From an uncultured virus (IMG/VR IMGVR_UViG_3300042270_000151) (Duplodnaviria; Heunggongvirae; Uroviricota; Caudoviricetes): DNA of 64,000 bases. Made by a program: the position numbers and the translations under genes. The notes under the pieces are model-generated. The model saw only the letters and a program-made list of their open reading frames with translations. It made no database searches and had not been told where the DNA came from. Positions within the stretch are counted from its first letter, which is position 1. Each line of letters begins with the position of its first letter. Positions 266 through 62,851 of this stretch are shown here, piece by piece. Where the stretch lies: the IMG/VR virus record IMGVR_UViG_3300042270_000151, positions 62,001-126,000 of that record, one strand, 5' to 3'.

Positions 266-2404
266 ATGATTTTGTTCAAATCTGATTGGAACCGATACGG
301 TACCGCCATTGCAGATACTCGCACGACAAACGAGTCCTTCTTACGTCTAGCAGCGGTCTACCGTGAGATGGGGGTTGAGAACCATGCGTTTCACCTATCG
401 TTGTTAAATCCCGCACTGCAAGGCATAAATCCCCATGACCCTAATTTGGATTTTGAAACGAAGGTCGCGATTGCCACTGAATGTCAGTGGAACCCTTGGT
501 ACGTTGTACGTGAGGTAATTCGCTTGCCGCCACAGGGTGGTCCTGCCCCTATACCCTTTAAGGCTAATCGCGGCAATATCTCCATGATGTGGTGCTTCTT
601 CAACCACATCGATTATGCACTCATTCAACCGCGTCAGACCGGTAAATCGGCATCCACAGATGTACTCATGGTCATTATCCTGGCCATGATGGCGTGGAGT
701 ACCAAAGTACAGCTTATTACCAAGGACCATCCCCTACGTCGACAGAACGTCGCCCGTATAAAGGCCATACGCGATCAATTGCCGAATTACCTTAATCCGA
801 CAACCCGTAACGATGCGGATAACACCGAAATCATTACCATGGTTGAGCGCTCCAATGAATACCTCACCGCAGTGGGACAGAAGTCGCGTGAGGGGGCGGA
901 TAACCTGGGTCGTGGTTTGACGGCGGCTATACTCCAAGCGGACGAGCTACCCTACATCCCGAACATCCACATCTCCTTGCCGGTTGCACTGGCGGCGGCT
1001 ACAGCGGCGCGTGAGAATGCGAAGATGGCACGAGGACTCTATGGGAACATCTTTACCACGACAGCGGGTCGTAAGGATACGAAAGAAGGACGTTTTGCTT
1101 ATAACCTTGTACATAATGGCATGTACTGGAATGAATGCCTGTACGACTGTGTGAACATTGAGGATCTAGTGCGGGTTATTAAAGCTAACTCTACCTCAAA
1201 CAGTCCCATGATTAACGGTACCTTTAGTCACCGTCAGTTGGGTAAAACGGACGAGTGGTTACGAGAAGCGATCGATAACGCCCGTGCATCTGAAGACTTG
1301 GCAAACCGTGACTTCTTCAATATCTGGACCAGTGGTACGGAGAGTTCGCCTCTCTCTATACAGTTAAACCAAGCCATCGCCTTATCTGAGATGGATCCGC
1401 TTTATATTGAGCGTAGTAGTAACAACTACATACTTCGGTGGTACCACCCACATGCGGACATTACACGGGTGATGGAGAGCCATTGGCACATCTTATCACT
1501 GGATAGCTCGAACGCCGTAGGGCGCGATAGCAATGGACTTGCGGTACTCGATAGTCGTGACCTTTCGATTACCGCAGCCTCCGATATTTCAGAGGCTAAC
1601 CTGTACCGTTATGCAGAATGGTTATTACAGCTCATGGTGCGGTTCCCAAAAACCATCCTGATGATCGAGAACAAATCCTCAGCACAGGGCATCTTGGACT
1701 ATTTGATTGCGAAACTACCGACGTACGGTGTTGACCCCTTCCGTCGCATTTACAATCGATTGATTGACAATAAGGCTGAGTACCCCGAAGACTACAAGGA
1801 GCTGTGTCGTCCCTTGAGTCAGCGTAAGGAGGAGTTCTACTTACGACATAAAGGTAAGTTTGGCTTTATGACCACGGGTAACCGCAGGGCGTTTCTGTAC
1901 GATACAGTCCTCCAGCAAGCGGCGAAGACCACCGCACATAAAGTGCGAGACCGCACCCTGTCCTCTGAGATACGGGGATTGGTTACCCGCAATGGGCGGG
2001 TGGACCATCCAGAAGGGGGCCACGATGATTTGGTCATGGGGTGGTTATTGGGGCACTGGTTCCTATCCCACGGACGCCACTTGGATGAATACGGCTTGGA
2101 TACCCGGGACGTAATGTCATTGGTATCGGACGACGGGGCAACTCTGTCAGAAGAGGATGCCGTTAAACGGGGTGAGCAGGCTAAACTTAGATTAGAGATT
2201 GAAGACCTTAAGGAACAGCTTAAAGACGCAGATAGTCCGGCAGAACGTATTCGTATTGAAGCAAACCTTAAACGGTTGGTTGCGCGTACGGAGGTGGATG
2301 GCGGTAGCGCCATGTCAATGGACAGTATTTTAGAGCAGGTCAAAGAGTCCAAGCGCAAGACAAACAGCTTACGAGGGGCGGTGTTGCGAAATAGAGGCTA
2401 TTAA
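266..2404 (+). CDS. terL: Terminase large subunit, phiKZ-like
   Basis: Walker A PRQTGKS, Walker B ILQADE, TTTAG coupling motif, nuclease LSLDSS and GHDDLVMG motifs; 712 aa. Confidence 0.9.
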   Translation: MILFKSDWNRYGTAIADTRTTNESFLRLAAVYREMGVENHAFHLSLLNPALQGINPHDPNLDFETKVAIATECQWNPWYVVREVIRLPPQGGPAPIPFKANRGNISMMWCFFNHIDYALIQPRQTGKSASTDVLMVIILAMMAWSTKVQLITKDHPLRRQNVARIKAIRDQLPNYLNPTTRNDADNTEIITMVERSNEYLTAVGQKSREGADNLGRGLTAAILQADELPYIPNIHISLPVALAAATAARENAKMARGLYGNIFTTTAGRKDTKEGRFAYNLVHNGMYWNECLYDCVNIEDLVRVIKANSTSNSPMINGTFSHRQLGKTDEWLREAIDNARASEDLANRDFFNIWTSGTESSPLSIQLNQAIALSEMDPLYIERSSNNYILRWYHPHADITRVMESHWHILSLDSSNAVGRDSNGLAVLDSRDLSITAASDISEANLYRYAEWLLQLMVRFPKTILMIENKSSAQGILDYLIAKLPTYGVDPFRRIYNRLIDNKAEYPEDYKELCRPLSQRKEEFYLRHKGKFGFMTTGNRRAFLYDTVLQQAAKTTAHKVRDRTLSSEIRGLVTRNGRVDHPEGGHDDLVMGWLLGHWFLSHGRHLDEYGLDTRDVMSLVSDDGATLSEEDAVKRGEQAKLRLEIEDLKEQLKDADSPAERIRIEANLKRLVARTEVDGGSAMSMDSILEQVKESKRKTNSLRGAVLRNRGY

Positions 2405-2408
2405 TAAT

Positions 2409-2442
2409 AATACTCCACTCCCCGGGTGGGGAGTGGAGTATT
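2409..2442. terminator. Bidirectional terminator hairpin between convergent genes
   Basis: 15-bp stem AATACTCCACTCCCC/GGGGAGTGGAGTATT. Confidence 0.7.
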
Positions 2443-2446
2443 CGTG

Positions 2447-2917
2447 TTATATGCTGTGTAGCCATACCAGGTTATAACCATCCCACATTGCCAGCCCTAA
2501 CTTCACGCGCTTGAAGTGATCAATCGTGTCGTCTAACGGCCAGCGACTGAGGAAGTCATCATCGGGCATTGGAAAGATGCAGGCAACGACACCGGCCTGT
2601 TTGATTACCCCTGTGCAATGGGTACACGGCGGGTGGGTTACAAACAGAATGCTTTCCTCTACCCGGCTGCCACTGGAGAGTGCATTTAAACAGGCATTCG
2701 TTTCTGCATGCAAGATGTGTTTGTACTTAAAAGCCCGGTCATGGTAAAAGGCTGGAGTATCATCCATCCCCCGTGGAAACCCATTGTACCCCAACGCCAG
2801 TACATTCTTATCCATGTTCACTAACAGTGCGCCTACCTGCGTTGAGGGGTCCTTTGACCAGGTAGCGACGTGACGACTTAGCTCCACAAATCGCTCTGTC
2901 CATTTAGTCGAGATCAT
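2447..2917 (-). CDS. dCMP deaminase
   Basis: SKDPSTQVGA, GYNGFPRG, HAETNA and PCTHC zinc-binding motifs. Confidence 0.92.
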   Translation of the reverse strand: MISTKWTERFVELSRHVATWSKDPSTQVGALLVNMDKNVLALGYNGFPRGMDDTPAFYHDRAFKYKHILHAETNACLNALSSGSRVEESILFVTHPPCTHCTGVIKQAGVVACIFPMPDDDFLSRWPLDDTIDHFKRVKLGLAMWDGYNLVWLHSI

Positions 2918-3285
2918 GTATTTTTCTTCACCCGTTTAATACAGATAAGGTTAACGTCCCACGAAAGCTGACACAGGCACCCTTCTTCTGTAACCGCCTG
3001 AAGGGGCCAAGTGGTTACAGCCCAGCTATATGGGCCTGCCACCTCTACACTGATGTCCCAGTTATGGGCATTCAGCGTGGGTTTCAACAGCTCTACAATT
3101 GTGGTATGAAGATTCGCCTCATTCACCGACTGGGGGAGAGGCTTCACTTCCATGATGGTGTTATTGAAGTCAGTTAAGGCACAGGTCAGGGTATAGGCGA
3201 AGTTTTCACTGTCGATTTTGCCGGGATCCAGCAATGCCGTAAGGGAGGTCTTATTACAGAGACATTTATCCGGTAAACAACTCAT
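2914..3285 (-). CDS. Hypothetical protein
   Basis: 123-aa ORF overlapping the dCMP deaminase start by 4 nt. Confidence 0.6.
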   Translation of the reverse strand: MSCLPDKCLCNKTSLTALLDPGKIDSENFAYTLTCALTDFNNTIMEVKPLPQSVNEANLHTTIVELLKPTLNAHNWDISVEVAGPYSWAVTTWPLQAVTEEGCLCQLSWDVNLICIKRVKKNT

Positions 3286-3296
3286 GAGGGATACTC

Positions 3297-5084
3297 TTAT
3301 TTGAAATGATTAAGGGTGAGTAGGCGAATGGTTAGGTAAACTAAGACTGCAATACGGGTAGAGGCCTGCACCGTAGTGTTACGTTTTTCCAATGCCTTTT
3401 CTATAAGATCGGCCGTCAGGCTACGTAAGGCAATGGCGTCCGAGGCGGCAAGCTGTGAGGAGCGCATCAGGTTACGCACTTTCATGACCACATGAATAAG
3501 GGTACGTTCACTAGCCGGTGCACGACGCAAATACCCCTGGATAAAGATTACTAACGCATCGACCAAGGCCTCAACGGAGGCCCGTTCCTTGCTACCCATC
3601 GCGTCGGATAGATAAAGGAGTGCGGTACGCAGATACCGTTCATCTGCGGTAGTGACCATCTTCAAGGTACTCTCTAGCACCTCATTGCGAATAAGGTCCT
3701 GGGGATCCAGTATGATATCCTTAAGCGCACGTTGCAGCCCGGCGGCTTTATTCTCAAACTCCCGCAACACCGTCTCACCCTCTCGGGTCACTAAGGTAGA
3801 GCCCTGTGACATGACCCGTGCATCCTGATCCCGTAGACGCATGTACTCAGACTTTAACTTCTTAACGACCTCACGGATACGAGACTGGATGTCACTGATA
3901 GCGTAAATGATCTTCTCGTCATCTGAAAAGTCAATTAGGGTCTGGTAATGAATGCTACCCTTACTGATAATGTCTTCCGACCGCGCCCGTACAAGGTTAC
4001 CCCAGGTATGGTACTGCTTCAGCATAGATTTACGACTCAAAGAGTCATACAGTGCCAGTGCAATCGCCTCTTGTGCCCGGTACGGGAATTGGTGGTACAG
4101 TAGGGAGGATAGGAACTGGTAATGCATGTGTGCAAGGATTGCCACCGCAACCTCTGTACGCTCGCGTTCGGGTAGATCACCGGTCAGTACCCGGTGCACT
4201 GCGTATAGGAAACTTGCGTTTATCGGGTTCCCCACGACATGGAAGTCAGGGTTAATGGTCGGAAGGTCGTGGAAATCCTGTTTCAGGCTACGTACGTCAT
4301 CGATACGCAGTCGCTCATACCACTCTGATGCATCATCGGCACGCCAGTGTAACCGATAAACACCTACCAGATTTCCCCCTAGGAAATTAATGTGTTCCTC
4401 ATCACGACCTTCAAAGGCCCGAATCGTCGTTAGGGTGAGCTTACCCCATCGTCGGTCGAAGGTTACCGACTTACAATACTCATCGTACACCGCTTTTATA
4501 TTCACATAGGTGGACTCACCCCGTGCTTCCATCGCAGGTGAACCAGTCGGGTGAGGCGGCAGTACATTGGATGTCGTGGGTGGTGCCGGTGAAATGGTCT
4601 TACACCAGTCACCTAACGTCCCATTAAACGGCGTACGTGTCTCCCCGTCTACGTACTCTACGCGTACACGGTTCTCGACGTCTGTGTAGATCCACACCTC
4701 AACGGATAGCGGGTGGAGTCGGCCAATGGGCAAATACCATCGGTTATCGGTAGCAGACTGTTTATTAGCCAGTAGAGTCTCAATGCGCTCACTGATTTCC
4801 AGTATGCCATAGAGCTCTACTGTAACACGGGCACCGATATAGGGTACGGTATAAAGGGCTTCTTTATCGATACCATTACCGATGGCGACTAAATGGGTTT
4901 CGAGTTCAGGGCAGGGCAAAAGTTTTAACCCTTTGAGACGGGATACCAGTTTTGCCAGTACCACGCGTGGTACTAACGCGCCACTGAGGGATAGGGTACT
5001 GGTACGACCTACTGCCGCGTGGAGCCTAGACAGTGTAGACTTCGCCTGGGCGACAGCGTCATTTTGCATAAGTAATGTGTTCAT
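3297..5084 (-). CDS. Large hypothetical protein, probably conserved in phiKZ-like phages
   Basis: 595-aa ORF; no catalytic motif recognised. Confidence 0.65.
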   Translation of the reverse strand: MNTLLMQNDAVAQAKSTLSRLHAAVGRTSTLSLSGALVPRVVLAKLVSRLKGLKLLPCPELETHLVAIGNGIDKEALYTVPYIGARVTVELYGILEISERIETLLANKQSATDNRWYLPIGRLHPLSVEVWIYTDVENRVRVEYVDGETRTPFNGTLGDWCKTISPAPPTTSNVLPPHPTGSPAMEARGESTYVNIKAVYDEYCKSVTFDRRWGKLTLTTIRAFEGRDEEHINFLGGNLVGVYRLHWRADDASEWYERLRIDDVRSLKQDFHDLPTINPDFHVVGNPINASFLYAVHRVLTGDLPERERTEVAVAILAHMHYQFLSSLLYHQFPYRAQEAIALALYDSLSRKSMLKQYHTWGNLVRARSEDIISKGSIHYQTLIDFSDDEKIIYAISDIQSRIREVVKKLKSEYMRLRDQDARVMSQGSTLVTREGETVLREFENKAAGLQRALKDIILDPQDLIRNEVLESTLKMVTTADERYLRTALLYLSDAMGSKERASVEALVDALVIFIQGYLRRAPASERTLIHVVMKVRNLMRSSQLAASDAIALRSLTADLIEKALEKRNTTVQASTRIAVLVYLTIRLLTLNHFK

Positions 5085-5625: not shown

Positions 5626-5744
5626 TCGCCCTCCTGCGGGAAGCGCGTGAGGTGTTAATGGCACAGGGGTCACATTCCGACCTGTGCTTTCGTTTAAAGC
5701 GCATGCAGCGCAGGATTGTTAAAGGAGAGACGAATGAACGTTAA
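5601..5744 (+). CDS. Small hypothetical protein (47 aa; not in ORF track)
   Basis: GAGGAGG RBS then ATG; MPKDQKELIALLREAREVL... Confidence 0.55.
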   Translation: MPKDQKELIALLREAREVLMAQGSHSDLCFRLKRMQRRIVKGETNER

Positions 5745-5850
5745 ACGACTCGTTTCACGTGTCCCGGAATCTGTCAAGGCACTGTTTGTCTTACTCTTTA
5801 TAATTGCAATGTACGGCCTGGCAGATGCCGTAGATCGCCTTCCATTATAA
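5734..5850 (+). CDS. Small membrane peptide (38 aa; not in ORF track)
   Basis: AAGGAG RBS; MNVKRLVSRVPESVKALFVLLFIIAMYGLADAVDRLPL with one hydrophobic segment. Confidence 0.55.
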   Translation: MNVKRLVSRVPESVKALFVLLFIIAMYGLADAVDRLPL

Positions 5851-5860
5851 GGGGGTTAGC

Positions 5861-6250
5861 ATGTATATCAAAGATGGTCGTTATGTTAACGCTGTACGAT
5901 CGACTGGTGTTACCCGCGCTATGGCGGAATACCACCGTATACGGCGTAACCTGTTTGCTGGACTACTAGGTCGGTCAGTGTATAGTTATCCAATCGCAGA
6001 TTACACAGACAGTTACTGGATGGTGGATGCGGAAGGCACATGGTGGATAGGGGACACTGTAACAGAAACTTTAACTTTACGGTACATTGGATGGGCGTGT
6101 CGTAAAGCTGACTGTAACTACGTGCATCCGGATGATCCGGTTGAGTGGCACGCAAACGGTGTAAGGGCGATTCTAACAGAGTCAGAGGTACCTGAGATTG
6201 TTATCTTGGATACAGATAAGCAGATACCAATAACGGTGAGAGGATATTAA
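5861..6250 (+). CDS. Hypothetical protein
   Basis: 129-aa ORF in a tightly packed operon. Confidence 0.6.
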   Translation: MYIKDGRYVNAVRSTGVTRAMAEYHRIRRNLFAGLLGRSVYSYPIADYTDSYWMVDAEGTWWIGDTVTETLTLRYIGWACRKADCNYVHPDDPVEWHANGVRAILTESEVPEIVILDTDKQIPITVRGY

Positions 6251-25459: not shown

Positions 25460-28173
25460 ATGTCCACAATGTCAATCTATGCCTGCGGCGGTGCAGGTAT
25501 TAACTTACTCAAAGATTTTGTTCGTCTGCCTCAGGATACTGAGGTGTCTTACTATCCCACTGTGCGAAAATATGCGCTGGATACCTCGGATTCAAACATC
25601 CGTGATCTGGGTGATGATATTAAAACCTTCTTGGTACCGGGTCTGCGTGGCGCGGGTAAGAAGCGCCAGCAAGCTTTCGAGGGCGTGAACGATCACGTCA
25701 ACAACATGTTGGTGGAGCACAAACCGTCTGATTACAACCTGGTTATGTTCTCTGCCTCAGGTGGTTAACGTCACGTTGTGACATAAGCCCGCCGTACAGG
25801 TAACTGTATGGTGACACGTCCCTTAATTGCTGGAAACTCCTTAAGTGCAGGTAGCTACAACGTAGTCTGAAAAGGCAAACGTGAATGCTTGAAAATATCT
25901 GCAATTGGACAATCAGCAGCGAAGCCCCTAAGGACTGTCGGGAGACAGGCTAGGGGGAACGTCCAACGACTAACGCATTGACCAGCGTGTAGGGCCCAAG
26001 TGGGTGGACATTGATCCTTAAATCGAAACGGGGACTATCCTAATAATGACTGAATAGTGTAAACCAAAGGTCGATTGGGCGACCTGAATATGGAGAACGC
26101 ATTATTGGAAAAGTGGAAGAAAATAACAGGGTGTTCTAATTATGAAGTCAGTGACACTGGCCGAGTTAGAAATGTTAGAACTGGCAAACTCTTGAAGCAG
26201 GGCATCGATAAATACGGGTATTTGAAAATATCCATACTCAACGATGACGGCGGCAAAAGATATAGTACCATCCATCGATTGGTGGCAGAAGAGTTTGTAC
26301 CGGGTTGGGACGCCAATCTACAGGTCAACCATATTGATGGTAATAAACTAAATCCCCGCGCCGACAACCTAGAGTGGGTAACGGCACATAAGAACCACAT
26401 ACATGCGGTTGCCAACGGATTAAATGCGAATGCGAATAGAACGTTAGTGGAAGACCTAGAGTCCGGACAGACATTAACGTTCAACTCAATCAAGAGTGCT
26501 GCTAATTACATTAACATACATGCCAATAACCTTATACCGTTGATACGTCGATCTAAAGACGCACCCTTGCTCGGTCGATGGATAGTTAAATTAGAAGACG
26601 AGCAGACACTGTTTTGTTCCTCGAACAGTGCTAAATTCGGCACCAACGTATTTGTATTGGATTGTGTAAACGGAGAGCGCCTAGTATACCCTAGTTACTT
26701 TATAGCTGCTTACTTTACCGGTATCCGATCACTTTCTAATATATTTAAGATTAGAAAGTGCGCATATATTGCCGGATACTACGTTGCACTCAACGAGGAT
26801 GATCTCCCAACTGCAACGGACGTATGTAAAGAAGAGGCCATGGCAATTAGGGAGAGCTATCAGTTGGTACCATATCGGGCCAAAAAACAGTACTACGAGC
26901 TCTACGACTATTACACAAAGACGACTACAAAGTTTTACAGTACAGAAGCTGTGGCGAAATTTGTTAATGAGCATTACGGTGGAAACTACGATCAGCGCGA
27001 CGTTTCGACTAAACTTGGCGAATGTAAAGGGCGTAAGGGAACTACACTCATACACGGGCTGGGTTTAAGATCTAGCCTTCATAGGTATGCGTGGTATCCC
27101 TTTACTGAGGAGACCATACTCTCCAGTTACTTTAAATGTAAGGCCCCTATGCGAATGTATAGGGTAACCAATGGAAGTACCACTAAACTCGTCCAGGGCG
27201 ACGAGGCTCTTCTAGATGAGCTTGGTATAGCAGATAAACGTAAATACTTCAGTCTAGAATATGTTTATAAGCAACTGAATGACCCAAACATTCACATAGT
27301 GCGCTTAAATAAACCTATTCAAAATTAGGATATTGATATAGTCTCGTCTCCCATTGAAAGGTGGGAGCTGCAAGTAATGTTGCGGACACTGATTAACGAA
27401 CAGTGTTGAAGATAACGAGTGGTTCTGTGGTGGGCCCCCTTGTAACGGCAGAACTGTTGCGACGTGGTGCAAACGTCATTACGCTGGTGGTGGGCAGTAC
27501 CTATTCAGGTATTGAGGCCAAGAATACGCTGCGTACACTGGAAACGCTACAGTCTATGGCCATGGGTAAGGCTACCAACAATCGTCCCATTATGATGATC
27601 TATCAGGAAAACGCCGCTAGCGATAATCACGCTAACGATGGATACCTGGGCTCTCGTCCGGATATCGATAACCGTGTCGAAGAGATTGTACGTCAGCTGG
27701 GTCTCTTGTTCTGTGGCAGTCACCATGAACTGGACCACACTGACCTGGTGAACTGGTTGGATCATAGTCGTAACCACGCCGATATCCCGTCTCAGCTGAT
27801 TGAGGTACTACCCTTTAAACAGACATTTGGTGGTAAACCCGAATGGCAGGGTACCGATATTACGGCCTTGGACGGTGCTGTTATCTCGACAGCCTCACTG
27901 CTCAATAGCGATGGCGATGAAATTCCATCCTTGGGTCAGCCGTATAGCTGTGTCGGTTACTACGATGGTAAGGTCTGGGGTGCTAAGGACCTGCCTAACT
28001 TCCATTTCGCAACCTCAGCTAGTCGCATTGGACAAATCATGGGGGGTGTTGAAATGGCAATCCGTGGATACGACAGCGTACGGGAATCACTGGCGACCGC
28101 TACCCCAGTGGGTGTTCATCAGGTGATGGATAAGGGTGACCGTACTACGGACGACAGTGGTATGGTGTTCTAA
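25460..28173 (+). CDS. phuZ: PhuZ phage tubulin, spliced (exons 25460-25765 and 27418-28173; 353 aa)
   Basis: ACGGAGIN, DTS and GAGK motifs; joining the exons restores SASGG|SGSVVGP; ELDHTDL T7-loop-like segment. Confidence 0.9.
25766..27417 (+). mobile_element. Group I intron in phuZ carrying a homing endonuclease
   Basis: Exon ends in T and intron ends in G; P AATTGCTGGAAA, Q AATCAGCAG, R CAACGACTA, S GATATAGTC; the ORF is enclosed by an ATCCTAAT/ATTAGGAT stem. Confidence 0.9.
26090..27328 (+). CDS. NUMOD4/HNH homing endonuclease (intron-encoded)
   Basis: YEVSDTGRVRN, IHRLVAEEF, VNHIDGNKLNPRADNLEWVT and NUMOD1-like FNSIKSAA. Confidence 0.9.
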   Translation: MENALLEKWKKITGCSNYEVSDTGRVRNVRTGKLLKQGIDKYGYLKISILNDDGGKRYSTIHRLVAEEFVPGWDANLQVNHIDGNKLNPRADNLEWVTAHKNHIHAVANGLNANANRTLVEDLESGQTLTFNSIKSAANYINIHANNLIPLIRRSKDAPLLGRWIVKLEDEQTLFCSSNSAKFGTNVFVLDCVNGERLVYPSYFIAAYFTGIRSLSNIFKIRKCAYIAGYYVALNEDDLPTATDVCKEEAMAIRESYQLVPYRAKKQYYELYDYYTKTTTKFYSTEAVAKFVNEHYGGNYDQRDVSTKLGECKGRKGTTLIHGLGLRSSLHRYAWYPFTEETILSSYFKCKAPMRMYRVTNGSTTKLVQGDEALLDELGIADKRKYFSLEYVYKQLNDPNIHIVRLNKPIQN

Positions 28174-35530: not shown

Positions 35531-37486
35531 ATGCGTGTGAATGACAACAACCCGAACAAAACTGCTGACCAGACTGCACAGCCGCAGGCTGCACAGCAGA
35601 CTCAGCAGCCACAACCACAGCAGGGGTATACCAATAATACTCGTTACAACGAGTATGACGGCGCGGACCCGTTCGAGGGTCTGGGTGTAGCCACCCTGAG
35701 TGGTGGCATGGATACTGAAGGCTTCGCCGCCTTCAGTGAAGAAATGAAACGTCTGGCAGCGCTGCCAGAGATTTCTAACATGTTGAAGTTGGAGGTGGTT
35801 TCCGTTTCCAGCCAGCAACTCTACTTGCCGGTGCTGGCACTGTGTGCAGTATCCAGCGCCACCAAGCAGGTTGTCGTATATGACCTCTTGATTGAGGGCA
35901 TGATGTCCTCTAAGCTGGAACCGATCGTGGAAACCATCCGCGATTATTCTGGTCAGAAGGACGTGATCACTGATCGCCCCACAACCCGCTGTTTCGATGA
36001 GAAGCTGCGTGAAGTGGTATCCACCTTCGTGGCTAACCAGTACAAAGTGAATCCGGCCGAAGTGGTTCATATCGGTCACTGTGTGGTGCCCAAGGCAGCG
36101 GATCTCTCCTCAGCAGAGGTGACTCGAGTGTACTTTGACTCTGCACATCTGGCCATCATTGATGCCGCAGGTGGTCAGGGTGTGGGACGTGTTAACGCGA
36201 AGCACCTGCGCAACCCACAGGTTGCAGTGCGTCAGCGCACTACAGTCACTCCGGGCGAATGTCGCCTGAACCGGATTGGTCAACCAATTGCAGCCGACTT
36301 CAATACCTCCATCAAACTCACCCGCGTTAATCAGAAGCAGGGTGACATGTACCAGGTTCATACTGGTACTCAGGAGCATAACCTGGCTGAAGTGTCTGGT
36401 TATGTGGATTTCAACATTATTACCCAGCAGCAGACTAGCCCGTACGCTCAGCTGCAGCAGCCTCAGGTACCCAAGCCTGGTTACATGCCGGTCGTGGTAC
36501 TGACTGAAGTCGCCGGTCTGGCGAACTCTGGTCGCTCCATTGAGGATCTGCGTACCCAGCTGATGGGTCTGGTTGCAACTCTGGCCATGACCGCTAATCA
36601 CGGTTGGGTCCGTGTCTTCGAAACCTACCCGGGTCAGAAGGTACAGAAGCAGTCCATTGGCATGTTGGGTCTGGAATACGATCCCTACGGCCGTGGTCCG
36701 GAAGCGTTGGGTAAGGTGCCGGTTGAATCGGTATCCCTTAACAAGGCGCCGGAAGAAGGCAAGGAAACTCCGTTCAGCATGGCCACTAAGTGGTGTACGC
36801 AGAACGTAGCGGTTGCACTGGATGTGGAGCAGGGTGGTCGTCTGGAGTGGGTGCAGTCCGTATTCATTGCGGCAGCACAGAACCCGCGCTCTGGCGCCAA
36901 TGATGACATCATCGCTGAATGTGATGCGTTGACCGGTGGTGCCTTCTCTCAGGTCTGGGCACAGGCTAACAACGGCAACGCTAAGGCGGCAGTGATGCAC
37001 CACGACACTGTGACCGTTCACCTCGGTACCTACACCGATAAGGATGGTCGCGCTCGTGACCTGCGTACCATCGACTATCTGACCATGCTGTCTGCGTCTC
37101 CGAAGGACCTGCAGTTCGTAGCTCAGGCTACCGCTGCAATGACTCCGGGCATTGCTAACAACATTAACCTGTCAGACCGTCGTCGCTGCCTGATGTCCGT
37201 TGCCGGTGACTGCAACATCACTGGCATGGCCACTCGCGTGTACTTCTCACCGAACTTCATTCCCTGTCTGGTACAGGCACTGATCAACAATGACGTCCGT
37301 ATCATCTCCGATGACATGGTCGCCTACGATCAGGGCATGCAGCGTCAGGGTATTGACCCGAACTTCGGTGGCACCTACAACGCGGCTGGTTTCTACCAGT
37401 CTCCGTACGGCCAGACCGGCCCGATGGGTGAGCAGATGCGCGGTAGCTACATTAACCCCGTATTCAACAAGCCCTACGGTCAGTAA
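35531..37486 (+). CDS. chmA: Chimallin / phage nuclear shell protein (phiKZ gp54-like)
   Basis: 651 aa with low-complexity termini and strong codon bias, its own early promoter and terminator, just upstream of the nvRNAP beta-prime gene as in phiKZ-like phages; mainly a size and synteny call. Confidence 0.75.
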   Translation: MRVNDNNPNKTADQTAQPQAAQQTQQPQPQQGYTNNTRYNEYDGADPFEGLGVATLSGGMDTEGFAAFSEEMKRLAALPEISNMLKLEVVSVSSQQLYLPVLALCAVSSATKQVVVYDLLIEGMMSSKLEPIVETIRDYSGQKDVITDRPTTRCFDEKLREVVSTFVANQYKVNPAEVVHIGHCVVPKAADLSSAEVTRVYFDSAHLAIIDAAGGQGVGRVNAKHLRNPQVAVRQRTTVTPGECRLNRIGQPIAADFNTSIKLTRVNQKQGDMYQVHTGTQEHNLAEVSGYVDFNIITQQQTSPYAQLQQPQVPKPGYMPVVVLTEVAGLANSGRSIEDLRTQLMGLVATLAMTANHGWVRVFETYPGQKVQKQSIGMLGLEYDPYGRGPEALGKVPVESVSLNKAPEEGKETPFSMATKWCTQNVAVALDVEQGGRLEWVQSVFIAAAQNPRSGANDDIIAECDALTGGAFSQVWAQANNGNAKAAVMHHDTVTVHLGTYTDKDGRARDLRTIDYLTMLSASPKDLQFVAQATAAMTPGIANNINLSDRRRCLMSVAGDCNITGMATRVYFSPNFIPCLVQALINNDVRIISDDMVAYDQGMQRQGIDPNFGGTYNAAGFYQSPYGQTGPMGEQMRGSYINPVFNKPYGQ

Positions 37487-37810: not shown

Positions 37811-40800
37811 ATGCATGAGAATGAAATGATTGCGTTCTCGATCCATGACCATGACCGTGCCTTCCACTCTCTACCCTTCACTCCGATCATCCTGAATGAT
37901 GTTCCGGCCCGAACGAAGGAAGAGCGGGATGCATTGAACGCTATGATCATGACGACCTATGATCACACCGATACACTGGACTCTATCCCCTCCTGCAGCT
38001 GCGGACACCTCTCCTATGGCTATAACCTAGGGCAGCTCTGTCCTAAGTGCAATACCCGTGTAGAAGCCGCCGGTGATCAAGAGATCGTCTCGAACGTCTG
38101 GTTCCGTGCACCACAAGGCGTCCACAGCCTGGTAAACCCCATGCTCTGGATGATTCTCTCTCCCCTCATGACCGGATCCCGGTTTAACGTACTTCAATGG
38201 TTTTGTGCCCCACTCATGGAGGATCCCCCTGAGTCAAATAAGAAAGCCTCGATGATTATGCACCGGTTAATGAAAACGGGGATACCCAGAGGCCTGAATA
38301 ATTTCATTGCACATTTCGATGACATAGCCGAAGCCATTCTAACGCTAATGCCCCGACATGAGCGCGAGTCGATGCAGGCGTTCTTCACCGTCTACCGGGA
38401 CCGCTTCTTCCCACAACACCTCCCCATGCCAAATAAGATTGCATTTGTCATGGAGAACACGGCTACAGGTACCTATGCCGATACGGCTATTCGTGAAGCG
38501 TTAGACGCGGCCCGTACTATTACTTCTATCGATGAGGAGACCTATGCCAACGTACGCCGCTTAGAAGGCAAGATTACCTCCATCATTAACTCATTGGCTA
38601 GCTACTACAGTGACATGTTTGGTGATCCTTTCTCCAAAAAGGAAGGTCTCCTCCGTAACACCGTCTTTGGTGGCCGCACACCGTTTGCATTCCGGTCAGT
38701 AATTGTGTCGGAGTCAGGGGTACACGACTATGAGCAAATAAAGATCCCGTACTCTCAAGCGGTTACGATGTTTAAAGTCCACTTGTTGAATAAACTCTAT
38801 AAGAAGGGCTATACCCATCGAGATGCCTGGGAGTATATCGACCGACACACCATCACACGTGATGCCTTGCTAGAAGAGCTACTCTATGAGATCTTCCAAG
38901 AGGCCCCGGGTGGCAAAGGCGTACGCTGTCTGTTCGTGAGGTATCCGACCCTTGCTAGGGGAAGTATCCAAGCCCTCCATATAAACGATATTTCTGATAA
39001 TGTTAGCAGTCTATCAGTGCTATGTACCCGTGCACCAAACGCAGATTTTTTAGTTTAACAAGTTAATTAATACGTTGTGCCGTTATCTTATATCGACGGT
39101 CAGTGACATGAAATGAGGTGTAAGATAATGGAAAACCTATCCAATGAAGTATCTAGAGGGTTTAGAACTCCCGAGGAGTCTAAAGAATTCCCTGGATACT
39201 ACGTTGTACCTAACCATCCTGATGTGCTAGTTAACGGCGTCGGGGAGGCGATATCTGCCATTAACGGGGAACCGTTGGGTAGAAAGTGTAATTCCAATGG
39301 TAAGAGGGGATACTCCACTGTTCAGACGTTTGATGAAAAAGCCGGTCGGAAGAAGAGCGTTGCGGTCCATAGACTTGTGGCTTTGACCTTCCTAAAAAGG
39401 GAGTGTTCCACGCATGTAGTTGTAAATCACAAGGATGGCGATAAATTTAACAACAGTCCATTTAACCTAGAATGGTGTACCTGGGGATACAACTCCCACC
39501 ATGCGTATCAAAATGGCTTAAGGGATGACAATAGGGCTATCATACGGCACGATCTCGTGGACGGCAGTACCCGTGAATGGGTAACCTTAAACGCCGCCGC
39601 TAGGGACAACGGCGTTGGGCAAGAGAACATCCACAGGTGGGTAAATGGCGAACCTAAAATTAGGTTTGGACGCTACGTTTTCAGATACCTTTCAGAGAAA
39701 CTCACAAAGACGGAGTTGGCTAGGGTCGATAGGGTCGAAAGTACCTCGCATCTTGGCATCGAGGTCGTTGCCATAAACGCATGTAGTGGTTCGATTACCA
39801 TATACCCAAGCGTCGCAAGCGCTGCGAGGGCACATAACGTGTTGCCGGCCACTGTGAGGGACATTTGCCGTTATGGTAGAAAGCACGCCATTAACGGACA
39901 TGCCTTTAGCTTCATTGGCAACAAAGACGCCCTACCTACGGTGAGCGAGATAGCCGACGCCACGGTCAAATGCTCAAATGACGTTGTGGCGTTAGACCTC
40001 TCCAACGGCACAGAGATCGTCCGACCAAACTGCATAGCGCTGGGCGCGGCAATTGGTGTGCAACCTGGAACTCTTTCAGCCTCCCTAAGACGGGATAACT
40101 TCTACCCAATTAACGGGTACCTAGTTAAAAAGCTTCTAGACGATAGGGAGTGGCCCTCCTTGGAGGAGCTATCCACATACACTAGGGGTAGAGCTCGGCC
40201 GGTAGTTGCACTTTCTGTTAAGACACAGCGGCGACATGATTTCGATAGCGTCAATGAGGCCGCAGAGCGTCTTAAGATATCTAAATATCAGATAGCTACA
40301 AATGCCAGGAAACGAAGGGATTGTGACCTTAAAGGGTATGTATTCAGATACACGGACGAGTTGGAGAAGTATCCCTTCCCGGAAATAGACCTAGAGTACA
40401 TTACAAAGGCTAGGACCGGTAAACCTTTAACCCTTAAGGTTAAGGACTACGTAACTGGGCAAGAGTTCTGCAACCTGGATACGAGTCAGGCCTCAACCAT
40501 ATGTGGGGCCAAGAGGCCCAGCATAACGGCAGCAAGAATTAACAGCAGGCTGGTAAGGTCAAGGTGGTTAGTTAGGGTACAGAACGATTATAGGCCCTGG
40601 CCGACTATCGAAGAGTTAATCAAGTACCGGGACGCATACAGCATTACATATGCGTACTCGGTGACTGCCGATGACAGTGGTAATCGTACACTGTATCTAC
40701 GGTTAGAGGATGTAGCCGCTGCGGTCAACATGGAGCTAAAGCGATTGCGCGACGCACTGTCCCAGCACGACGGCGTATATAGGGTAAATGGACTCACCGT

Positions 40801-41867
40801 TAAGGCTACTAAGTGGGTCTTCAGTGAAGAGGCTAATGTCACCGGCACTGCCGTAGCCTGATCACTGAAATTAATAACTTGTTAAACAAAGTCCCCTTAG
40901 GCAGAGATGTTTAAGGGATCCTCTCTAACTGCGGGAAACCCCTTTACAGCTCTAAGGTACCCCTTACCCACCGAAAGGTAGGGTAATCCCTCTCCCAGTA
41001 ATGGAAGTGAGAGGTATGGTAAAAACCCTTAGAGATTGGGCAACCGACGCAGCGAAGCTCCTACATTACCTGTGGGTAACACGGAGTGAGTTCAACGGCC
41101 ATCCGGTAGCGCGGAGTAGCGGGCAAGCGCCTGCCAAACGGGAGGCTTCCTAACCACACTGTGGAAGGAAGGTGATATGGTCTGCTCCCCTGTGAAAGCA
41201 GGGGCGGGTGTCTGAGCACACCGGCTGTAGTGTAGCGCCTACAGTGGACAAAAGGTTCGATGGTGATAAACGTCTTTAACTAAAGACATGTGTCCGCTAT
41301 ACGGGTAACTGTATAGTGATCGCTCTCTAATTGCGGGAACGGGCTAAAGCTTGTCTAACCACAACATAGGTCGAAAGGCCAAGTGTGAAGGTTACGAAAG
41401 TAGAAAAAATAGACAAGATGCGCTATGGCAATAGTAAGCCTAAGGCGCGTGACAATGTTCAACCACGCAGCCAATGACCTAAGGACTACTGTGAAGTAGG
41501 CTAGGGTCCAGGTCCGACGGTCAACCGGTAACCACGGTGTAGAGCCCAAGTGGGCAGAAATGGGAGCCCCCTTCTATATGGAGGGTGAAGATATGACCTC
41601 GACGTCCGGGTAACACCCGGAGAAGTTCATAAGAGAACTGCTTAAGTCTAACGAACTTAGGTGAAGACCTCGCAACTATCAGGCATGATAGCGCTCTCGA
41701 AACAGCAACACGATGCGTTTGAGTATTACCGCCCACATTACGGTATCCATTCGTATACGGATCCTGGAGAGTTTAACGGGGCATCGAGTCTACCGGAGGT
41801 AGATGTTGGTGTACTGGCTAACTGGCTGGAAGAAGAAGACTATGCAATAAAGGACGCAGCCTCTTAA
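37811..41867 (+). CDS. Non-virion RNAP beta-prime N-terminal subunit (phiKZ gp55-like), spliced from three exons: 37811-39046, 41256-41267, 41673-41867 (480 aa)
   Basis: CSCG...CPKC zinc finger, GRTPFAFRSVI and RYPTL; the spliced product reads APNAD|FDGD|QLSGM, the catalytic motif. Confidence 0.9.
39047..41255 (+). mobile_element. Group I intron 1 in the nvRNAP gene, HNH ORF in its 5' (P1) loop
   Basis: P AACTGCGGGAAA, Q ACCGACGCAG, R TTCAACGGCCA, S GATATGGTC and terminal G; GTTTAACAAGTTA/TAACTTGTTAAAC stem brackets the ORF. Confidence 0.88.
39113..40861 (+). CDS. HNH homing endonuclease with NUMOD1-like repeats (intron-encoded)
   Basis: VHRLVALTF, VNHKDGDKFNNSPFNLEWCT; repeated YPSVASAARA and FDSVNEAAERL helices. 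Confidence 0.88.
   Translation: MRCKIMENLSNEVSRGFRTPEESKEFPGYYVVPNHPDVLVNGVGEAISAINGEPLGRKCNSNGKRGYSTVQTFDEKAGRKKSVAVHRLVALTFLKRECSTHVVVNHKDGDKFNNSPFNLEWCTWGYNSHHAYQNGLRDDNRAIIRHDLVDGSTREWVTLNAAARDNGVGQENIHRWVNGEPKIRFGRYVFRYLSEKLTKTELARVDRVESTSHLGIEVVAINACSGSITIYPSVASAARAHNVLPATVRDICRYGRKHAINGHAFSFIGNKDALPTVSEIADATVKCSNDVVALDLSNGTEIVRPNCIALGAAIGVQPGTLSASLRRDNFYPINGYLVKKLLDDREWPSLEELSTYTRGRARPVVALSVKTQRRHDFDSVNEAAERLKISKYQIATNARKRRDCDLKGYVFRYTDELEKYPFPEIDLEYITKARTGKPLTLKVKDYVTGQEFCNLDTSQASTICGAKRPSITAARINSRLVRSRWLVRVQNDYRPWPTIEELIKYRDAYSITYAYSVTADDSGNRTLYLRLEDVAAAVNMELKRLRDALSQHDGVYRVNGLTVKATKWVFSEEANVTGTAVA
41268..41672 (+). mobile_element. Group I intron 2 in the nvRNAP gene (ORF-less, 405 nt)
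   Basis: P AATTGCGGGAA, Q AACCACGCAG, R CCGACGGTCA, S AAGATATGACC; P3 GCTCTC/GGGAGC; exon ends in T and intron ends in G. Confidence 0.85.
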
Positions 41868-61253: not shown

Positions 61254-62851
61254 ACCATGATGGTAAAAAAATACGCCACCATGTCCATTGGAATCAGCCC
61301 ATGTTCTGCTTCAGCCGGATCCAACTGCGGTTCATTACAGGATGGGCATACATAGTTCGGTATACCTGTAAAGGTCACCTGTGCTTCCACCCGGTGACGG
61401 TCAACCGCTTCGATGATGTTCCTCGCTAACGCCTTGTCTTCAGCCAACGTCTCCAATGAGCTGAACAAGGTATCAGTATCTGAAACAATGCGTGGTTCAT
61501 CTTCACCCGGCACATGCATCTGGAGGTTCTTTATCCACGCAGCATGCTTTTGCAGACGCAGTGCGTGCTGGTAGTTGCGGATAAAGCTAATGCGCTTGGT
61601 GCGACGAGTTTCACGGTCCGCATCCGTAATGCGATCCATCGCGGCATTGACCATTTCCATTACCCCGTTAATCCACAGTCGACCTACACGCTCATAGGTT
61701 TCCAGGTTGGGCTGGTGGAAGGCAATTTTTACGATGGCCCCACTGTCAGACAAAGGTGCACTCAAAGGCTCCAAGGTGTTAAATTCATCTTGATATTCTT
61801 CGATCTGCTCGACAGTATGTACATTGTTACCGGCTGACATAAACCGACGCGCCTTCGGACTAACTCGGGTGCGATCCGTCCAGACCACCTTTTTAAAGTC
61901 CAGCAGACTGTCGACTTTAAACTCAATACCGTCAATATCGACTTCCAGGGTAGGATTGTAGTCACACTTACTAGTGCCACTGTTCTTACACTTATGGACT
62001 GTTGGGTAGCCTGAGGGGTAAATAGATGCCAGAGCACCCGCCAACAGTGCAGGAATATCCATGACCTTCAGCAGTTTCTTCAGAACCGCCTTATCCCCGA
62101 CCATCCAGCCACGTATGTTGGTGGCAATAACGTGATCGAGGATGAAGTCCACCACCTCAGAGATGATGTTCACATCCCCACCTGAAAACAACATGCCGCC
62201 GGTTTCATACCCGATCTCAGCGCGGGTCTCTGTCAAGGCTAGGTTCAGTGAGAGAATCTCTGAGGTCTTAAAGTTACCTAGGGTTAGTACCAGACCTGAC
62301 GACCAGCAGGGTACCTTAGTTGGCTTACCAATACCCAGTGCATTCTGAATCGCCATAATGGCAGAGGGCCCGGACATAGCCTGACTGCTACCTAGTGCAA
62401 CGTTCTGACCACCGATACGGATAGGACCTTTATCAGAATCAATCGCCTGTACAAACTCAGCTCCTTCACGGGTGAAGAGGTCGGCGTACTGTCCATGCCG
62501 CCAATGTCCAAGATAGGTCTGGCGAAGGTGGTCCGCATAAGCCTGTACCGCAGAGCGTGCTGCGGATTCAGACATGTTCGCCTCGGCTTCCAGCGCATAG
62601 TCACGAATCAGACGATCGAGGGTCTCAACGGTTGTTGTTTCCATGGGTACTGGGAACACCCAATCGCGTACTCGAATACCCGGTTCTGCTGAAAGGTCTT
62701 TGAAGGGGTTAGCCTCCAGGATAACGGTAGGTTTATGGGTTGCTGTACTGGACTCTTCACCAACCACAGCGTCTTGAGTAGGAGTCTCTTCGGTGCCGTT
62801 GAATGGATTCTGTTCTTCAGTGCTCATCGTTGATAATTCCTTGTACATCAA
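61211..62851 (-). CDS. phiKZ-like hypothetical protein with C-terminal CxxC
   Basis: 546 aa with CPSC near the C-terminus; start probably ATG 62827. Confidence 0.6.
   Translation of the reverse strand: MMYKELSTMSTEEQNPFNGTEETPTQDAVVGEESSTATHKPTVILEANPFKDLSAEPGIRVRDWVFPVPMETTTVETLDRLIRDYALEAEANMSESAARSAVQAYADHLRQTYLGHWRHGQYADLFTREGAEFVQAIDSDKGPIRIGGQNVALGSSQAMSGPSAIMAIQNALGIGKPTKVPCWSSGLVLTLGNFKTSEILSLNLALTETRAEIGYETGGMLFSGGDVNIISEVVDFILDHVIATNIRGWMVGDKAVLKKLLKVMDIPALLAGALASIYPSGYPTVHKCKNSGTSKCDYNPTLEVDIDGIEFKVDSLLDFKKVVWTDRTRVSPKARRFMSAGNNVHTVEQIEEYQDEFNTLEPLSAPLSDSGAIVKIAFHQPNLETYERVGRLWINGVMEMVNAAMDRITDADRETRRTKRISFIRNYQHALRLQKHAAWIKNLQMHVPGEDEPRIVSDTDTLFSSLETLAEDKALARNIIEAVDRHRVEAQVTFTGIPNYVCPSCNEPQLDPAEAEHGLIPMDMVAYFFTIMVWKWEHEATISTNP

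Follow-up and report, generated by a model that had tools for sequence, protein, structure and literature searches.

Two closely spaced group I introns very probably enclose a catalytic micro-exon in the RNA polymerase gene of a nucleus-forming phage

Introduction

How can a phage gene yield an active RNA polymerase when its open reading frame (ORF) breaks off in the middle of the catalytic motif? This question is raised by a 64,000-nt stretch of DNA from an uncultured virus of the Caudoviricetes (hereafter the window; positions 62,001 to 126,000 of IMG/VR record IMGVR_UViG_3300042270_000151), in which the gene for a non-virion RNA polymerase (nvRNAP) beta' subunit reads N-A-D of the motif NADFDGD and then meets a stop codon. 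An earlier note, made from the letters alone, had proposed that the motif is split by two tandem group I introns around an exon of four codons. We conclude that the gene very probably does contain two group I introns, 12 nt apart, on either side of a catalytic micro-exon.

Group I introns with HNH genes are established in the RNA polymerase genes of phiKZ-like phages, namely in phiKZ gp56, gp72 and gp179 (PMC11512511), and an intron in the virion RNA polymerase gene of PhiPA3 has been described (PMC12908238, PMC11620839). The presence of several introns in one phage gene is established too, as in phage Twort, where three similar group I introns are reported in a review to be accompanied by exon skipping (PMC3073962).

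Results

The exons and their joined product

Exon 1, encoding the N-terminal non-virion beta' subunit, occupies 37811..39046 on the + strand and ends with the codons AAC GCA GAT (N-A-D; last base 39046), in frame with ORF 37811..39058. That ORF matches phrog_2987, 'RNA polymerase beta subunit' (E 5.8e-118), and has a weak match to Pfam RNA_pol_Rpb1_2. Exon 3 (41673..41867, + strand) begins with CAA CTA TCA in the frame of ORF 41661..41867 and reads from Q-L-S-G-M to the stop codon at 41865-41867. Against a profile of the C-terminal parts of uninterrupted homologues it gives E 6.5e-10, with a match that begins one residue past DGD, and its amino-acid sequence is identical to that of a sister phage (L015, described below). 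The micro-exon proper is the 12-nt piece at 41256..41267 (+ strand, TTCGATGGTGAT), which encodes F-D-G-D, and with it two of the three catalytic aspartates of NADFDGD.

We joined the three exons by script and compared the product with three genes that have no interruption, those of Klebsiella phage Eowyn, Xanthomonas phage Xoo-sp14 and Pseudomonas phage PhiPA3. The sequences align without a gap across NADFDGD into exon 3, so that the product NAD-FDGD-QL, first read from the letters in the earlier note, is borne out. If the micro-exon is left out, exactly four residues are absent between exons 1 and 3, and the 12-nt piece fills this gap; the catalytic loop is complete only with it, in a protein homologous to the phiKZ gp55-type non-virion beta' N-terminal subunits.

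The FDGD motif alone is weak evidence: TTYGAYGGNGAY has a single match in the window, for a chance expectation of about 0.19, and the shuffled window contained it at least once in 17 of 100 trials. Chance is excluded because the micro-exon fits exactly between the end, at 41255, of a match to the intron model R1 (introduced below) and an intron whose own match ends at 41672. An in-frame TAA follows each 5' splice site within at most four codons (39056-39058 and 41277-41279), and ribosomes on unspliced RNA would thus stop at once.

Two group I introns

Intron 1 (39047..41255, + strand, 2209 nt) follows an exon ending in U and has G (41255) as its last base. Shifting its splice positions by one or two Ts gives the same mRNA, and only the position adopted here ends the intron in G. 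It matches the Rfam group I model RF00028 over the full model (40871-41204) with 52.2 bits, above the gathering cut-off of 50. Wholly inside it lies an ORF of 582 aa (39113..40861, + strand) that matches phrog_59 (E 1.4e-34); in Pfam, HNH_3 scores 24.0 bits, just under the cut-off of 24.8, and I-HmuI NUMOD-like and NUMOD1 also match. Its predicted product is an I-HmuI-like HNH homing endonuclease made of an HNH domain and NUMOD modules. The 5' strand of P1 (39044..39049, + strand) consists of the exon bases GAU and the intron bases UUU, and pairs with the internal guide AAAGUC (40888..40893, + strand; GTC at 40891-40893), which stands at the position homologous to the GUCC guide of related introns. 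The splice site is marked by a U.G wobble between U39046 and G40891. An inverted repeat of 16 nt (39050-39065 with 40875-40890, 94% complementary) flanks the HNH ORF and extends P1, and places the ORF in the terminal loop of the extended helix. Two of the public DNA runs that we compared, X13 and X15, also hold contigs that match the end of intron 1 up to 41255 and then diverge into unrelated sequence, which places a close copy of the 3' end of intron 1 in another gene or phage of the same samples.

Intron 2 (41268..41672, + strand, 405 nt) likewise follows a U and ends in G (41672). No + strand ORF of at least 40 aa lies inside it; two mechanical minus-strand ORFs overlap it. Against RF00028 it gives a match over the full model (41272-41620) of only 20.6 bits (E 0.03), under the cut-off of 50. 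This low score arises because compensatory P7 and P4 pairs are penalised as sequence changes, and because the model cannot see the P7 pseudoknot. BLAST finds matches for parts of intron 2 in group I introns of Staphylococcus, Clostridium and Lactococcus phages, and in the intron that Vibrio phage vB_pir03 has in the same gene. We built a covariance model, R1, from the 3' domains of 18 introns, all from other phages and none from the window phage. R1 matches intron 2 at 41512-41672 with 105.3 bits (E 1.2e-22) and intron 1 at 41090-41255 with 95.5 bits (E 2.6e-20), in both cases over the full model and ending on the predicted terminal G. The covariance-model search proposed in the earlier note as a check is thus positive for intron 1 with Rfam itself; for intron 2 it is negative at the Rfam cut-off and positive with R1.

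The structure of intron 2 follows the group I plan on the + strand. Its internal guide GUC (41292..41294), in a column homologous to the guides of the family alignment, pairs with GAU of the micro-exon (41265-41267), and the minimum-energy fold of 41262-41296 pairs U41267 with G41292, again a U.G wobble. The fold also gives a hairpin that extends P1 (41272-41287) and a P2 hairpin with a GUAA tetraloop (41295..41318), all seven pairs of which change on both sides across the family. A P7 pseudoknot (41519..41598; 41519-41523 with 41594-41598) encloses P3' (41562-41567, pairing with 41322-41327) and P8 (41569-41574 with 41580-41585).

We examined covariation in a MAFFT alignment of intron 2 and eight related introns. 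RNAalifold recovered P3, P4, P5, P6 and P9.x; of its 36 pairs, 22 have compensatory changes. When P2 and P7 are added, pairing over the 48 pairs of 10 helices reaches 92.3%. Shuffles give 74.6% (none of 500 reached the observed value) and controls with slid partners 34-44%; both sides change in 32 of the 48 pairs. P1, P8 and P9 stand outside this formal count because MAFFT misaligned the 5' exons of two relatives (L080 and L068) and the P9 helix. P7 is paired in all nine sequences, with GGUCA/UGACC in the window and GACUA/UAGUC in the family, a difference of three compensatory pairs. In a diverged strain that carries both introns (run X15), G41322>T occurs together with C41567>A, and these two bases are the partners of the outer P3 pair. 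By covariation, intron 2 has the core helices of a group I intron (P3, P4, P6, P7 and P8).

Direct reading of the sequence confirmed every coordinate, codon, terminal G and intron length (2209 and 405 nt) that the earlier note had given. Its description of an HNH ORF in intron 1, of an ORF-less intron 2, and of two 5' exons ending in GAT, each facing a GTC guide (40891-40893; 41292-41294), also held.

Intron-less alleles and independent arrival

The same arrangement is found in two more IMG/VR contigs (L013 and L014), and 13 of the 24 public DNA runs listed contain at least half of the sampled words. Four runs were compared along the stretch: contigs of run X10 are letter-for-letter identical wherever they cover it, and the diverged contig of X15 extends from the 3' end of intron 1 through the micro-exon and across intron 2. 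The layout is not an assembly artefact.

Two natural alleles lack intron 2. In the sister phage L015, whose exon 1 is 95% identical, intron 1 stands at the same site with a ribozyme 95% identical and a different HNH ORF of 335 aa, and FDGD-QLSGM is continuous. A DNA contig of the wastewater run X13 also keeps intron 1 and lacks intron 2: 41267 is joined to 41682, and 9 letters replace 41673-41681, encoding the same three residues with other codons. Intron 2 is thus a discrete insertion of exactly 41268-41672. These alleles fix its boundaries; that it is spliced out we infer from the DNA. They also indicate that the two introns do not always travel together. A related observation concerns the 9 nt that follow intron 2 (41673-41681, compared with 3109-3117 of L015 and with X13), which show 5 differences, all synonymous, while the rest of exon 3 is nearly identical; this cluster may be a co-conversion tract or a change that confers immunity to an endonuclease.

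The same alleles bear on the view that a single composite intron, of twintron or nested type, takes up the whole of 39047-41672 and that the FDGD inside it is a coincidence. The shuffles lend this view some support, as the 12-nt pattern may arise by chance. However, removal of the whole segment deletes FDGD, which is present in all 54 uninterrupted relatives (see below), whereas two complete ribozyme 3' domains end at 41255 and 41672, and natural alleles carry intron 1 alone with FDGD fused to exon 3. We regard a composite intron as the least probable of the alternatives considered here, and hardly credible.

Did two separate introns arrive, or was one duplicated? Both match the R1 family model and share a GUC guide, as would be expected if the tandem layout had come from duplication of a single resident intron. 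Against this, introns 1 and 2 have no pairwise BLAST match, and they differ in the sub-type of their 3' ends. Each is closer to introns of other loci, intron 1 to those of L015, L020 and L007 and intron 2 to those of L008 and vB_pir03. The core of intron 2 shares 73% identity over 242 nt with an intron of another RNA polymerase gene in the same genome; for the last 79 nt of intron 2 the identity is 80%, to the vB_pir03 intron at NAD^F, a site 12 nt upstream. The sister phage L015, moreover, has only intron 1. Duplication is thus very improbable, if slightly less so than a composite intron, and the comparison supports an independent arrival of the two introns, as the earlier note had suggested in speaking of two invasions.

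The guides add to this picture. That of intron 2, GUCCGC, pairs with five of the six bases at the end of exon 1 (GCAGAU) and with only four of six at the end of its own micro-exon, while the guide of intron 1 fits the end of the micro-exon better than that of exon 1. Intron 2 most likely derives from an intron at NAD^F that was re-targeted to the next GAU.

Introns on the same motif in related phages

The tandem arrangement is not unique to the window phage and recurs in related loci. We compared 80 related IMG/VR loci, a set chosen by peptide pattern, with duplicates included, and not a population sample. The motif reads (F/Y)DGD followed by at least 30 further residues without interruption in 54 of them, and is interrupted in or just before the motif in the other 26. 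Model R1 matches all 26 interrupted loci and none of the 54 others.

From the reading frame, the rule of a preceding U and a terminal G, the ends of the R1 matches and the P1 pairing, thus without RNA, we infer at least nine insertion points: within the codon that precedes N; at PN^A, NA^D and NAD^F; after the first, second and third base of the F codon; and at DG^D and DGD^x. The predicted guides track these sites, with GGAU/GUCC at NAD^, GGUGAU/GUCACC at DGD^, GACGGU/GCCGUC at DG^ and AAU/GUU at PN^, a covariation of P1 that comes from reading the sequences. Ten of the 26 interrupted loci have two or three introns, separated by micro-exons of 6 to 15 nt. Counted without repeats they amount to nine distinct architectures, L013 and L014 being copies of the window. 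The single micro-exon measures 12 nt in this window type and in L071, where both introns are ORF-less and occupy the same two sites; 9 nt in L021 and in L065; 15 nt in L066; and 10 nt in L063, which is Escherichia phage Goslar. Three introns with two micro-exons are found in L019 (6 and 12 nt), L072 (13 and 10 nt) and L085 (11 and 12 nt). On this comparison, the window locus is one example of a recurrent, unannotated pile-up of predicted introns on the active-site codons of the polymerase.

Goslar brings the phenomenon into a cultured phage. In its RefSeq record (NC_048170, locus L003), the coding sequence of exon 1 continues for 16 nt beyond the predicted 5' splice site (4250) to an in-frame stop at 4266; a single Intron_gpI and an HNH gene are annotated, and exon 3 is the 'hypothetical protein' gp185. 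Within the intron region (L003 4251-6058), the 10-nt exon (5691-5700) and the second intron (5701-6058; R1 79.1 bits) are unannotated. Rfam at E up to 1 does not detect this second intron, which R1 detects. We considered a last splice site after ...GGTAG in Goslar and rejected it, as the homology of the intron 3' ends and the end of the R1 match place the site 21 nt downstream.

Other cultured phages complete the comparison. The earlier note had taken the phiKZ gp55 homologue to be split by one intron, and this needs correction: Pseudomonas phage fnug, of the phiKZ species, has two, and phage PA7 has one. That of PA7 lies in the RNA polymerase gene at DGD^Q, the site of window intron 2, and PA7 lacks the upstream intron of fnug. 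In fnug (L093), this other intron, which has its own ORF, lies upstream at RN^PTL (1815-3058), and an exon of 126 nt precedes the DGD^ intron. In Vibrio phage vB_VmeM-Yong XC31 (L006), an R1 match stops at 1242, and the 12 letters that follow at once (1243-1254; region 997-1254) encode FDGD. This appears to be a further NAD^F intron of a cultured phage, with flanking ORFs annotated as hypothetical.

Splicing of the tandem introns

As we read the locus, intron 1 at NAD^F, which carries the HNH gene, and intron 2 at DGD^Q, an ORF-less ribozyme of a related but distinct sub-lineage, would each fold alone and remove itself, using its own P1 formed by the GAU of its 5' exon and a GUC guide, with a U.G wobble. 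Both would have to self-splice for the four-codon exon to be retained and the polymerase to be active. With its last three or four bases the micro-exon would form the P1 of the downstream intron, and its first bases would serve as the 3' exon of the upstream one. As P10 is weak or missing, it is probably the terminal G and the P9 region that set the 3' sites. The two introns could splice in either order. The downstream ribozyme could also use exon 1 in the role of 5' exon and so leave out the micro-exon, which is conceivable because GAU is read by both guides and each pairs no worse with the other's exon than with its own. The skipped product would be an in-frame protein minus two catalytic aspartates.

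Several points weigh against this reading. Intron 2 falls 30 bits short of the curated Rfam threshold, and the covariation was measured on a MAFFT alignment with helices that we chose from the Rfam alignment and RNAalifold, which somewhat favours structure. The exon side of P1 is only 3 base pairs (bp) long in both introns. By reading the sequence, P10 of intron 1 has at most 2 bp (AA with UU), and a convincing P10 for intron 2 was sought in the same way and not found. No RNA run was listed as containing the stretch, and neither splice junction was observed. Finally, the crossed fit of guides and exons would allow mis-pairing and a skipped micro-exon.

It could be proposed that intron 2, or both introns, mis-splice, that the micro-exon is skipped or the gene dead, and that the phage makes an inactive beta' fragment or uses another polymerase. 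The Rfam score, the short P1 and the crossed guides would all fit such a proposal, as would the exon skipping reported for the three similar group I introns of phage Twort (PMC3073962). On the other hand, all core helices of intron 2 are preserved by compensatory changes, also within its own strain lineage, and all three exons are intact and conserved. Two further IMG/VR contigs have the same sequence, at least half of the sampled words occur in the 13 of 24 listed runs already mentioned, and nine distinct phage lineages have kept in-frame micro-exons. We thus give mis-splicing a small probability, somewhat above that of duplication or of a composite intron, and retain two self-splicing introns around a translated micro-exon as the preferred reading.

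The phage and its other introns

The IMG/VR virus record to which the window belongs is 132 kb long and has an estimated completeness of 47%. The genes that flank the locus include those for the nuclear shell protein chimallin (35531-37486, upstream of exon 1; phrog_4795, E 5.2e-56) and the tubulin PhuZ, which together with the RNA polymerase ORF stand in an order that matches the nucleus-forming phiKZ-like phages. The window phage is a nucleus-forming, chimallivirus-like jumbo phage. A search for near-identical DNA in the 'phages' collection gave no match to the locus. The nearest cultured phages have only about 36% identity to the exon 1 protein (in rpoBC / nvRNAP beta' genes), and 289 phage records have a match to the RNA polymerase protein.

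Further introns occur in the same genome. The PhuZ gene (25460-28173, phrog_4733) is interrupted in the glycine-rich sequence SASGG^SGS by one group I intron (25766-27417), of the same family as intron 2 and with an HNH ORF at 26075-27328. A second weak Rfam match near PhuZ (27123-27366) was considered as a separate intron and rejected, as it is the 3' half of this one, split by its HNH ORF; the two Rfam matches in this gene correspond to the two halves of the single intron. Outside the window, another RNA polymerase beta-type gene (phrog_3148) contains two further group I introns, L008 (G000:C1:36771-40190) and L007 (G000:C1:41508-44858), which score 61.6 and 67.2 bits in Rfam and each adjoin an HNH ORF. 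The 132-kb fragment thus holds at least five introns, four of them in RNA polymerase genes.

Discussion

The introns of phiKZ-like RNA polymerase genes resemble those of the window in gene family, kind of intron and kind of endonuclease. The phiKZ and PhiPA3 introns, however, are described as single at each site, whereas the window has two, 12 nt apart, around a four-codon exon in the catalytic motif. The likeness to phage Twort (PMC3073962) lies in the multiple introns of one phage gene; the family described here differs in that its internal exons, of 6 to 15 nt, encode active-site residues, and in that a skipped product would be without two catalytic aspartates. Very short exons between introns, missed by ORF callers, are also known in organelles, with a single-base exon in placozoan cox1 and cases in intron-rich fungal mitochondrial genomes (PMC5436844, PMC12308204), but these are mitochondria of eukaryotes.

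Our search of the literature on group I introns and micro-exons found no phage or bacterial case, and no report of micro-exons or tandem introns in NADFDGD was found in the literature searched, which lay outside subscription papers and supplements. Term searches of PMC12908238, PMC11878797, PMC11620839, the Goslar RNase H preprint and the ChmC preprint returned nothing on tandem introns or micro-exons; the only Goslar intron mentioned is one in the DNA polymerase gene. Thus introns in phiKZ-type RNA polymerase genes and phage genes with several introns are known, and hidden micro-exons on the catalytic motif are new as far as we searched.

How might intron 2 have spread? As it has no endonuclease of its own, it probably did so by co-conversion with intron 1 or by reverse splicing into the GAU site. 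Phage T4 offers a model for the first route: its mobE mobilises the defunct I-TevIII intron in trans (PMC2790892), and we propose by analogy that the ORF-less intron 2 could have travelled with the HNH endonuclease of intron 1.

One might speculate further that the NADFDGD DNA is a contested landing strip, on which related group I introns would re-target among at least nine points within about 27 nt, up to three deep and leaving exons down to 6 nt. Stacking could be selected, as each resident intron would destroy the target of a rival phage's homing endonuclease, giving layered immunity in co-infection. It may also be tolerated, if the phage nucleus keeps transcription and splicing apart from ribosomes. 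Since neighbouring ribozymes read the same GAU, an aspartate-less, in-frame beta' could be made, as a side product or a regulated one. We put forward this joint reading of layered immunity, nuclear tolerance and an aspartate-less product tentatively, and think it rather unlikely to hold as a whole.

For annotation, the consequence is that exons of 6 to 15 nt are invisible to ORF callers, and that a catalytic subunit is filed as a truncated protein and a 'hypothetical protein', as in the Goslar RefSeq record; the hidden codons are needed for expressing or modelling such polymerases. For the mechanism of splicing, a single exon of 12 nt, or of 6 nt in L019, would be shared by two ribozymes, as the 3' exon of the first and the 5' exon of the second. 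The shared reading of GAU makes splicing order and exon skipping testable, and Goslar provides a cultured system in E. coli. Jumbo phages that co-infect a cell were recently found to use intron endonucleases as weapons against one another (PMC11620839). One intron family on many adjacent sites, with its guides apparently retuned to each, would be a natural record of how group I introns are re-targeted, and this record bears on the use of intron endonucleases as weapons between phages.

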